Made by a program: the position numbers and the translations under genes. This document shows positions 9,191 through 21,933 of a DNA stretch of 64,000 nucleotides, piece by piece. Within the stretch, counting starts at the first letter, position 1; each line of letters starts with the position of its first letter. The stretch is from positions 15,004,001 to 15,068,000 of the forward strand of contig OX597841.1 of the NCBI GenBank assembly GCA_951406725.2, in the 5' to 3' direction. The notes beneath the pieces are model-generated. The model saw only the letters and a list, made by a program, of their open reading frames with translations, was not told the origin of the DNA and made no database searches. The stretch comes from Octopus vulgaris (taxonomy: Eukaryota).

Positions 9191-9202
9191 TTTTCAAAAT
9201 GT

Positions 9203-9397
9203 GACCTCATGTGTACCGTTGGCGATTTTTTTCCCTCTGTCTTCCCTTCTCTGGATCTTTCCTTCTCCTATGTTTCCGACGAAGAGCTCCGCTCGAAACG
9301 TTAAACCCTTCTTCTTTCCTCCTTTCCTGGGCGTCCAATAATACTATATTTGTTCCACGTCCTCGCGTTGTGTTTTTTTGTGCTTTCTTGTTTGGAT

Positions 9398-9402
<5 letters not shown>
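9203..9402 (+). mobile_element. Short PLE-type element family H2
   Basis: Near-identical to reverse complement of 58962-59165; ends in (TA)n. Confidence 0.75.
9272..9307 (+). ncRNA. Minimal type I hammerhead motif, C4 core (family H2)
   Basis: GTTT-CCGACGA-A-GAGC(TCC)GCTC-GAA-ACGT-T-AAAAC. Confidence 0.6.
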
Positions 9403-9433
<31 letters not shown>

Positions 9434-9436
<3 letters not shown>

Positions 9437-9643
9437 GGATGCAGCACGGACTTTGTCAGTGAACAGGTCGCGGATTTTAGCGACGAAAATATTTTGACAA
9501 ATTAAACTTAAATGTTGAAGTGAATCGAACGGCTTTTGTGTGTTTCTTAAATGGCTTATAAACACCTTCCACGCTGCAATTGTTTTCGTTCCAGCACACG
9601 ATCTCAGATCAAATTACTTGCTATGCGAGTACATCTCCGTAAT
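9434..9643 (+). mobile_element. Short PLE-type element family H3
   Basis: Highly similar to 21731-21933; both sides (TA)n. Confidence 0.75.
9452..9501 (+). ncRNA. Minimal type I hammerhead motif with G3:C8 core (family H3)
   Basis: TTTGTCA-GTGAACA-G-GTCGC(GGATTTTA)GCGAC-GAA-AATATT-T-TGACAAA: 7-bp stem I, 5-bp stem II, palindromic stem III. Confidence 0.75.
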
Positions 9644-9795
9644 ATATATATATATATATATATAAATAAAAAGAATTCCAACCTTGTCTGATTTTCACGT
9701 TTTATTTACAATCTTATAATGGTATATTATAAGATAATATATTATAATTGAATAAAATAAAATGAAATAGTAGAATGTTAAATATTCATTCTGAT

Positions 9796-9840
9796 TGAAC
9801 TAGTACTTTCATGCATTGAATTCTGCAATCTTCGGGTTCA
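9796..9840 (-). ncRNA. Minimal hammerhead motif in PLE pLTR (left arm)
   Basis: Exact mirror of 11295-11339. Confidence 0.7.
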
Positions 9841-10334
9841 TGTAGTAGTGTTGACAGTCATGCTTCACAATTTTTGACTGTAGCAAGATGAGTGATTCTG
9901 TGCTATAAATACAGCTGGGTAGGCTCCAGAGTGCTAGGTTTTGCAAACTGTATTCTGACCAATCAGTGTGTAGTATCACTCAATTACTTAAGCTGATTGG
10001 TTGGTTGAGCTGATTGGTTTAGGCATCACGCTTTGTTGGACAGGTCAAGAGTCCTGTATCTTGACCCTGGCCGAAGCAGCAATTGTTGGGTTATTTTTAG
10101 AAATGTTGTAAATATCCTTTGTCAGAGATTTTTATATTTTTATATTTCAATTGTCATCATCATCATTGTCAGCACCTTAATTATTGTTGCTAGTGGTGAT
10201 GGTGGTGGCAATAGAACTTTTAACCCTAAATAAGATAATTTTCCTGCTATCTTCGTCTTGATCACCTTTAGTATTGTTGTTGTTGTTAGTGGTCATGGTC
10301 GTAGCAGTGGAAGTAATACCTCTAAGTATTATTA

Positions 10335-10718
10335 TTATTGCTTATTTAGCTTGGGTTCGAATTTATCAATAAAATTCTTTTCTCTGATTTTCCTCTCGAT
10401 TTCACTTGGGCTGTGTAATTTGTAGAATGGAAATATTATATATATTTTCCGACCACATGTTGCTAGGTGGTTACTCAAAGGTATCTGACGGACCTCTGGG
10501 TCTCTAATCTGTTGCCGGTGTACACGTGAGCGTTCTAATAGTGCGTTTCCCGTCTGACCTACATATATTTCTTCACAATTTGGGCATTTGATGCAGTAAA
10601 TTAAATTTCTGCTTTTGCAGTTCATATTCGCGTTTGTGAATATTTTCCCGGTTTTTGTGTTTATATATTGACCGGTATGTATGAATTGGCATGTGCCACA
10701 TCGGCTATCATTGCATTT
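10335..10718 (-). pseudogene. C-terminal GIY-YIG endonuclease domain of PLE ORF (uninterrupted, 5'-truncated)
   Basis: KCNDSRCGTC Cys linker, NLIYCIKCPNC..IYVGQT..ER..H..H..RE..I..LN*, the PLE GIY-YIG/CCHH pattern; RT absent. Confidence 0.92.
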
Positions 10719-11117
10719 AGATATCGAGAGATAAATCGAGAGGAAAATCAGAGAAAAGAATTTTATTGATAAATTCGAACCCAAGCTAAATAAGCAATAA
10801 TAATAATACTTAGAGGTATTACTTCCACTGCTACGACCATGACCACTAACAACAACAACAATACTAAAGGTGATCAAGACGAAGATAGCAGGAAAATTAT
10901 CTTATTTAGGGTTAAAAGTTCTATTGCCACCACCATCACCACTAGCAACAATAATTAAGGTGCTGACAATGATGATGATGACAATTGAAATATAAAAATA
11001 TAAAAATCTCTGACAAAGGATATTTACAACATTTCTAAAAATAACCCAACAATTGCTGCTTCGGCCAGGGTCAAGATACAGGACTCTTGACCTGTCCAAC
11101 AAAGCGTGATGCCTAAA

Positions 11118-11260
11118 CCAATCAGCTCAACCAACCAATCAGCTTAAGTAATTGAGTGATACTACACACTGATTGGTCAGAATACAGTTTGCAAAACCTA
11201 GCACTCTGGAGCCTACCCAGCTGTATTTATAGCACAGAATCACTCATCTTGCTACAGTCA
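11118..11260 (+). promoter_or_regulatory. Putative pLTR Pol II promoter (CCAAT x3, TATA-like, Inr-like); mirrored at 9875-10017
   Basis: CCAATCAG at ~11118 and ~11135, reverse CTGATTGG ~11169, TATTTATAG ~11225, ACAGTC ~11254, directly upstream of the HHR. Confidence 0.5.
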
Positions 11261-11294
11261 AAAATTGTGAAGCATGACTGTCAACACTACTACA

Positions 11295-11339
11295 TGAACC
11301 CGAAGATTGCAGAATTCAATGCATGAAAGTACTAGTTCA
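11295..11339 (+). ncRNA. Minimal hammerhead motif in PLE pLTR (right arm), C4 core
   Basis: TGAAC-CCGAAGA-T-TGCA(GAATTCAA)TGCA-T-GAA-AGTACT-A-GTTCA. Confidence 0.7.
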
Positions 11340-11500
11340 ATCAGAATGAATATTTAACATTCTACTATTTCATTTTATTTTATTCAATTATAATATATTA
11401 TCTTATAATATATCATTATAAGATTGTAAATAAAACGTGAAAATCAGACAAGGTTGGAATTCTTTTATTAATATATTCTTCTATACACAATCACACACAC

Positions 11501-21439: not shown

Positions 21440-21477
21440 CTGTTACTCTGAGTTTCTCGTTGCCGTTCATCAGACAG
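21440..21477 (-). ncRNA. Minimal HHR, canonical CUGAUGA core (H1, left arm)
   Basis: Exact mirror of 21502-21539. Confidence 0.75.
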
Positions 21478-21501
21478 TTTTTGCTAGAATTCTAGCAAAA
21501 A

Positions 21502-21539
21502 CTGTCTGATGAACGGCAACGAGAAACTCAGAGTAACAG
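21502..21539 (+). ncRNA. Minimal HHR, canonical CUGAUGA core (H1, right arm)
   Basis: CTGT-CTGATGA-ACG(GCAA)CGA-GAA-ACTC(A)GAGT-A-ACAG; GUA cleavage triplet. Confidence 0.75.
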
Positions 21540-21641: not shown

Positions 21642-21645
<4 letters not shown>

Positions 21646-21933
21646 GCAGCGTGGAAGGTGTTTGTAAGCCATTTAAGAAACACACAAAAGCCGTTCGATT
21701 CACTTCAACATTTAAGTTTAATTTGTCAAATGCACCACGGATTTTTGTCAGTGAACAGGTCGCAGATTTTAGCGACGAAAATATTTTGACAAATTAAACT
21801 TAAATGTTGAAGTGAACGAACGGCTTTTGTGTGTTTCTTAAATGGCTTACAAACACCTTCCACGCTGCAATTGTTTTCGTTCCAGCCCACGATCTCAGAT
21901 CAAATCACTTGCTATGCGAGTACATCTCCGTAA
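21642..21933. mobile_element. Family H3 element with inverted arm (21642-21730 mirrors 21785-21872)
   Basis: Direct reverse-complement match; (TA)n flanks. Confidence 0.8.
21744..21793 (+). ncRNA. Minimal HHR with G3:C8 core (H3)
   Basis: TTTGTCA-GTGAACA-G-GTCGC(AGATTTTA)GCGAC-GAA-AATATT-T-TGACAAA; differs from the 9452 copy only in loop II. Confidence 0.75.

Follow-up and report, generated by a model that had tools for sequence, protein, structure and literature searches.

A probable hammerhead ribozyme with a natural G3:C8 core pair in a Penelope-like element of Octopus vulgaris

Minimal type I hammerheads were described in metazoan Penelope-like elements (PLEs). According to the accessible text of PMC4209133 (Cervera and de la Pena 2014), they lie in the pseudo-LTR (pLTR), have the core CUGANGA, an unpaired 9/10.1 nucleotide (consensus letter H), a G10.1-C11.1 pair, an NUH triplet and a short palindromic stem III implying dimers, and they occur in many dispersed truncated copies. 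The sole 3:8 covariation reported in that text is U3-A8, and natural U3:A8 is known from PMC3088659 (Perreault 2011) and from the Schistosoma Cercyon variant (PMC4209133), as far as these sources are available. The swapped pair is known from engineered molecules: in the accessible portions of the papers, C3G/G8C partly restores cleavage of the Anolis PAc PLE hammerhead, for which the PLE protein is needed (PMC11167929), the partial rescue is also given in a review (PMC8495972), and G3-C8 is stated to be less active with C17 than with G17, data not shown (PMC3884650). An earlier note on the DNA analyzed here had held it established that the swapped pair rescues activity; the part of PMC11167929 available to us supports a rescue, but a partial one. 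A natural G3:C8 pair was not found in the searched text of the hammerhead literature, and is absent from the accessible text of PMC6155905, PMC7229834, PMC10085705, PMC11014351, PMC6765202, and bioRxiv 10.64898/2026.07.22.740005.

Here, we describe a PLE hammerhead in Octopus vulgaris whose core reads GUGAACA, i.e., with G at position 3 and C at position 8. Natural U3:A8 and engineered G3:C8 are already published; natural G3:C8 would be the new element here, a prior description being possible. The octopus motif and natural U3:A8 are both pair-preserving natural double changes, and a U3:A8 family is also a sister lineage in the octopus genome. U3:A8 is reached by two transitions and keeps the pyrimidine-purine order, whereas G3:C8 takes two transversions and places a pyrimidine at position 8. 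Compared with the engineered C3G/G8C, the core letters are the same, but in octopus thousands of copies carry the swap as their wild-type sequence, together with U17. Two copies lie in the window (the whole 64-kb stretch of DNA that was analyzed), with the following features.

9437 (+): extra G at the 5' junction of copy 1, absent from the parent template
9438..9642 (+): short copy 1 of the PLE pseudo-LTR, matching the 3' end of long RT/EN copies
9452..9458 (+): hammerhead stem I, 5' strand, copy 1, pairing with 9495-9501 in 7 Watson-Crick pairs
9459..9465 (+): core positions 3-9, GUGAACA, copy 1 (G3 = 9459, C8 = 9464)
9466 (+): unpaired nucleotide 9a = G, between A9 and stem II, copy 1
9467..9484 (+): stem II and loop II, copy 1 (5 bp, 9467-9471/9480-9484, with G10.1-C11.1; 8-nt loop II, 9472-9479)
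9485..9494 (+): G12-A13-A14-A15.1, stem III and U17, copy 1 (GAAA 9485-9488, palindrome AATATT 9488-9493, U17 9494)
9495..9501 (+): hammerhead stem I, 3' strand, copy 1
9551..9642 (+): PLE ORF start, copy 1 (ATG 9551, 30 codons, where copy 1 terminates)
21642..21730 (-): inverted 5'-truncated arm of copy 2, starting 2 nt upstream of the predicted cut, as is typical of PLE insertions
21730..21933 (+): short copy 2 of the same PLE, 96% identical to copy 1
21744..21793 (+): hammerhead of copy 2 (G3 21751, C8 21756; predicted cut after 21786)

The cut after 9494 is a prediction via hammerhead numbering. Copy 1 runs from a likely transcription start through a hammerhead-bearing 5' UTR into the 30 opening ORF codons, and its insertion target is (TA)n. 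The 3' end of the unit fits the internal priming described for the Anolis PLE in the accessible part of PMC11167929, and by that analogy the end at 9642 is likely an internal RT priming site. The earlier note had described two copies with these stems, GAAA, AATATT and the GUGAACA core, differing only in loop II; all of this is seen at 9452-9501 and 21744-21793, and the sole difference between the two 50-nt hammerheads is one base, 9472, the first of loop II. Its anatomy was correct save for one omission, the unpaired G 9a, which is kept in 20/20 rows of a hand-picked alignment of the clade. The note had also proposed a PLE-type hammerhead with a parent PLE, and the parent ORF was found (see below); the prediction that CUGANGA-type searches miss the family agrees with the GUGAACA core and with Rfam, whose 14 matches over 9200-9640 at E up to 10 included no hammerhead. 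For the whole window, the Rfam list was swamped by microsatellite matches (150 of 443 matches listed).

Set against the published PLE motifs, the octopus motif has stems I and II with GAAA in type I order, a Watson-Crick 3:8 pair (G:C here; C:G and U:A in sister lineages), the unpaired 9/10.1 nucleotide (G at 9466 instead of H), the G10.1-C11.1 pair (20/20 rows), a palindromic stem III AATATT followed by U17 in the NUH triplet, a pLTR location and many dispersed truncated copies; it departs from them in its 7-bp stem I and in its core, which is not the literal CUGANGA, and is classed as a variant for that reason. It is not a non-LTR retrozyme, i.e., a set of 170-400 nt head-to-tail repeats with a hammerhead in each: the two in the window stand alone, 12.3 kb from each other, and among the matches listed most genomic copies are likewise solitary or arranged head-to-head. 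No site other than these two came out when both window strands were scanned with a relaxed type I pattern that accepted any paired 3:8 and a stem I from 5 bp upward. Fold z-scores against 200 shuffles are -3.4 and -3.7 for the two copies. The MFE structure pairs G3 with U17, an off-pathway register, and the 6-bp duplex of the AAUAUU dimer contact alone amounts to -0.2 kcal/mol.

The surroundings of the copies hold further repeats. Directly 3' of copy 1 there is a perfect 734-nt inverted repeat (window 9669-10402 / 10733-11466) with 330 nt between its arms, and a short distance 5' of copy 2 another repeat encloses a perfect palindromic hairpin of ~84 nt (21448-21531), whose scores against several miRNA models do not reach the thresholds of these models. 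Other hammerhead families are represented at window 9276 (+), 56348 (-) and 59093 (-) by three motifs, each with C3:G8 and a palindromic stem III of 4 nt; in the one at 9276, which precedes the copy 1 hammerhead by 180 bp, position 4 is C.

In the 2.8-Gb genome, the ~200-bp unit is scattered as a repeat within (TA)n, and its copies often carry a truncated arm in inverted orientation. Longer copies reach upstream via ~1 kb of microsatellite-rich DNA into an RT and GIY-YIG ORF, and the hammerhead is located ~1.0 kb behind this RT-EN ORF and 57 nt (or 92 nt in another count) before the next ATG. The final 92 nt of the unit are the opening 30 ORF codons and are continuous with the RT ORF in a tandem pLTR-ORF-pLTR unit of 4.26 kb (L100); the unit is therefore a pseudo-LTR with the hammerhead in its 5' UTR. 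Another locus (L098) has a 1025-aa open frame with YVDD. Pfam GIY-YIG scores above its cut-off, and RVT_1 was found below cut-off only and in the sister protein only. Among named proteins, the best homolog is labelled Octopus vulgaris. The endonuclease is preceded by a CX3CxxC linker, which falls within the CX2-5CxxC of the Neptune/Nematis clade, and the signs of EN+ PLEs are present as tandem pLTRs (L100), inverted truncated copies and (TA)n targets. The parent can thus be typed by its linker as a probable Neptune/Nematis-type PLE, the tree having been built without named reference PLEs. Such elements, in the available text of PMC8557442 (Craig 2021), are alike in RT, CX3CxxC linker, C-terminal GIY-YIG, pLTRs, inverted 5'-truncated copies, (TA)n targets and a hammerhead close to the 3' end; with its non-canonical core, the octopus motif would go unnoticed by the CUGANGA descriptors of that study. 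Pieces of RT and GIY-YIG from a different PLE-like family (L063:5482-7875 (+) and L062:3-790 (+)) adjoin copies of the element.

G3:C8 is fixed across the family. With positions 3 and 8 left open, the family pattern has 1940 exact genome matches (0 in the reversed control), and G:C is found in 98 of the 100 listed. The earlier note had looked to the number of genomic copies and to their conservation at G3 and C8; the wider G3 pattern has 8268 matches (control, 14), with G:C in 96/100 listed. The young copies are 99% identical to one another; young and older subfamilies differ in loop II and are ~89-91% identical to each other. A relic family has a 6-nt loop and the shorter palindrome AATT, and the young family is 67% identical to one relic copy. 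Among decayed relic copies, C8 is kept in 8/9 and G3 is the commonest base at position 3 (4/9); no linked ORF was seen among the relic loci examined. The G3:C8 swap is common to two amplification waves and the older relic family. Please note that conservation among young copies is inheritance and is no evidence for selection; what counts is persistence through three source-element generations. C3:G8 occurred in 0/33 matches of the G3:C8 lineage changed at both positions. With the threshold set at 3%, neither position 3 nor position 8 differed in contigs from runs of four coded organisms; contigs cannot show ends. A metagenome scan with the G3:C8 pattern returned 64 loci, none with a stem I longer than 3 bp, which we took as chance.

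A protein search found sister families at ~52% identity, within the ~50-55% protein identity seen across these lineages, with a homologous motif behind their own ORFs. The cores of their pLTRs have C3:G8 (L102/L103) or U3:A8 (L104/L105). A non-G3 pattern has 10319 matches (control, 1), and a hand count of the 100 listed gave 52 C:G, 37 U:A and 11 unpaired, i.e., 89 Watson-Crick. In a 20-row alignment, U4, G5, A6, G9a, G10.1-C11.1, G12, A13 and A14 are invariant, the 3:8 pair is GC in 8 rows, CG in 7 and UA in 5, and in two pairs of stem II both partners vary; these rows were hand-picked as family-typical and are related, and the shuffle test counts sequences, not events. An RT-EN tree has the topology (G:C,(U:A,C:G)) with support >=98/97. 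Of its 13 rows, 8 come from the genome and have a hammerhead linked to them, and 5 are outgroups; it informs the topology, not the ancestral 3:8 pair; a 52-row tree was a quick tree. With three pair types on this topology, at least two pair-preserving double changes must have taken place. We consider this covariation between sister families, with its two events, to be the main and real evidence of selection on the tertiary 3:8 pair. It argues for selection of the tertiary fold, with catalysis as the likeliest reason. The idea of the earlier note that a double change preserving the pair implies selection thus stands through the sister families, but not through the two 96%-identical young copies from which it was drawn.

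Other positions also vary between these families. In stem III, the relic and U:A families share the palindrome AATT, and the G3:C8 family has AATATT. U17 was found in 147/147 young and old G3:C8 copies tallied, and C17 in 13/17 and 18/18 copies of two C:G families, with loci not randomly sampled in either tally. It is suggestive that U17 may have permitted G3, as a C at position 17 would be expected to trap G3 in an inactive pairing register, by analogy with the C3-G17 trap; however, U17 need not be coupled to G3, because the U:A family has U17 too. One very active C:G sister family (L103, L208-L210) has the core CUGAUGC, many 1310-1312-aa ORFs and tandem units 4.6 kb apart. In 14/17 of its tallied copies, C replaces A9, and a related subfamily keeps A9; core letters can thus drift, with some tolerance. 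Copies with a C3·A8 mismatch occur in the U:A family (L175, L223; 3/100 listed) and in a C:G family (L221, L222; 2/100), and may be decay or a transitional state.

The 5' ends of the genomic copies were then compared with the predicted cut. A total of 946 matches begin 58 nt upstream of it. The base before this start site among the 100 listed is G in 88 and A in 12 (the pattern allowed purines only), and the template (L098) has a pyrimidine there. The extra G is present in 20/20 individually examined loci, and the base upstream of it is not shared (C7 T6 A6 G1). A TATA-like run is found ~30 nt upstream of the start site. The site 58 nt upstream of the cut is likely a transcription start. RTs can copy a cap, and the simplest reading of the extra G is likely a reverse-transcribed cap; cap copying in PLEs did not appear among the literature matches listed. 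If the extra G is a copied cap, most insertions likely came from capped, uncut RNA, which agrees with the in vitro findings for the Anolis PLE (PMC11167929). In a second copy class, GTG stands before ATGC (11/15), possibly by misincorporation at the first nucleotide. A 3' splice site at ACTAAC...TTTCTTAG, ahead of the start site, was considered and rejected: no common upstream exon was seen and the TATA-like run favors a start site, a dual role being possible.

Around the cut itself, 97 of the 100 listed sites were recovered and 55 kept as true 5' junctions, those with indels and poor downstream matches being dropped. These 55 lie at -9..+8 of the predicted cut and spread over 17 positions. 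Junctions at -1/+1 number 12/55 against 6.5 expected (p 0.024, uniform null, uncorrected, window picked post hoc), those at +1 number 5/55 (p 0.22), and those within -1..+3 number 22/55 (p 0.005, window picked post hoc). Matches without the upstream core number 422 against 216 for a downstream control window; the two anchors differ in sensitivity, and the junction analysis therefore relies on the within-window test. From these sequences, the enrichment of copies starting at the predicted cut is at most a weak hint. Some insertions (L376, L380, L351) fold back at or beside the stem III AATATT, with mirror copies that lack the 5' half of the hammerhead.

We think it probable, with the comparison of families as our ground, that the motif is a selected, cleavage-competent fold, i.e., a slow self-cleaving ribozyme that depends on a dimer or on protein, with its 3:8 pair kept by selection. 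The strongest competitor, though improbable, is a fold selected as a structural element, such as an RT/EN binding site or a translation or template-switch signal, with no useful cutting left. It is favored by the weak enrichment at the cut and by the short copies, most of which start 5' of a motif that is intact and bear a cap-like G. It also gains from the Anolis PLE, in which catalytic mutants of the hammerhead insert normally, insertion in vitro being unimpaired, and in which no reads ended at the cut (available text of PMC11167929), and from the low activity reported for minimal hammerheads, with other functions left open (PMC4209133, accessible part). Several points speak against a structural role. 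The 3:8 pair forms only in the compact active hammerhead fold, the published rescue is a partial one, and G12, A13, A14, G5, A6 and NUH are kept across lineages with 50-55% identical proteins.

Efficient cutting, with cut or circularized RNA as the normal insertion template in a retrozyme-like cycle, was proposed for PLEs (accessible text of PMC4209133). It draws on the slight junction excess near the cut (22/55, above), the inverted arm of copy 2, which begins 2 nt from the cut, and the compatibility of long copies having the ORF upstream of the tail with a circle. We regard it as quite unlikely as the normal route, since 946 matches start at the upstream site, mostly with an extra G, and a circle has no cap, and since the 422 matches without the upstream core, judged by the 97 examined sites, come down to 55 true junctions over 17 positions; it could apply to a minority of long insertions. 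Least credible is a neutral founder accident, i.e., a decaying hammerhead that took two hits which chance to pair and was then amplified, for which one can cite the identity by descent of young-family copies (99%) and, with two independent double changes documented, a rough estimate of about 1 chance in 10 to 16 that two random double changes both pair; G3:C8 however was retained from the relic through the old to the young family, although these differ in loop II, N7 and stem III, the remaining core is invariant across the clade, and decayed double-changed copies, unlike the family founders, mostly do not pair at 3:8.

For the cleavage-competent fold, a life cycle can be proposed. Transcription would start 58 nt upstream of the cut, and RT would prime ~90 nt into the ORF and copy capped, uncut RNA back to the cap, which would yield copies of 200 bp. 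Where tandem units are transcribed together, two motifs would pair via the AAUAUU palindrome and cut after U17; the mRNA would thereby lose its capped 5' end, and RNA of unit length would be set free. Cutting would then serve now and then to process or dampen transcripts, with most template arising in another way. The whole of this reading, i.e., three 3:8 pairs active in one clade, the first natural G3:C8, insertion from capped, uncut RNA, and a hammerhead that is a slow dimer-gated switch for decapping or trimming tandem transcripts and not a template-making enzyme, is tentative and, taken together, has clearly less than an even chance of being right.

If borne out, natural 3:8 covariation would be completed by its transversion form, which the literature searched gave only as a laboratory rescue mutant. 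CUGANGA and Rfam searches also miss ~8,000 motifs in one genome. What PLE hammerheads do is called unclear in the accessible text of PMC8557442. Three related, recently active families with different cores and a cap-like 5' signature offer a comparative system for that role, and if the three-pair reading is true, the families would form a natural allelic series with which the purpose of PLE hammerheads could be tested.
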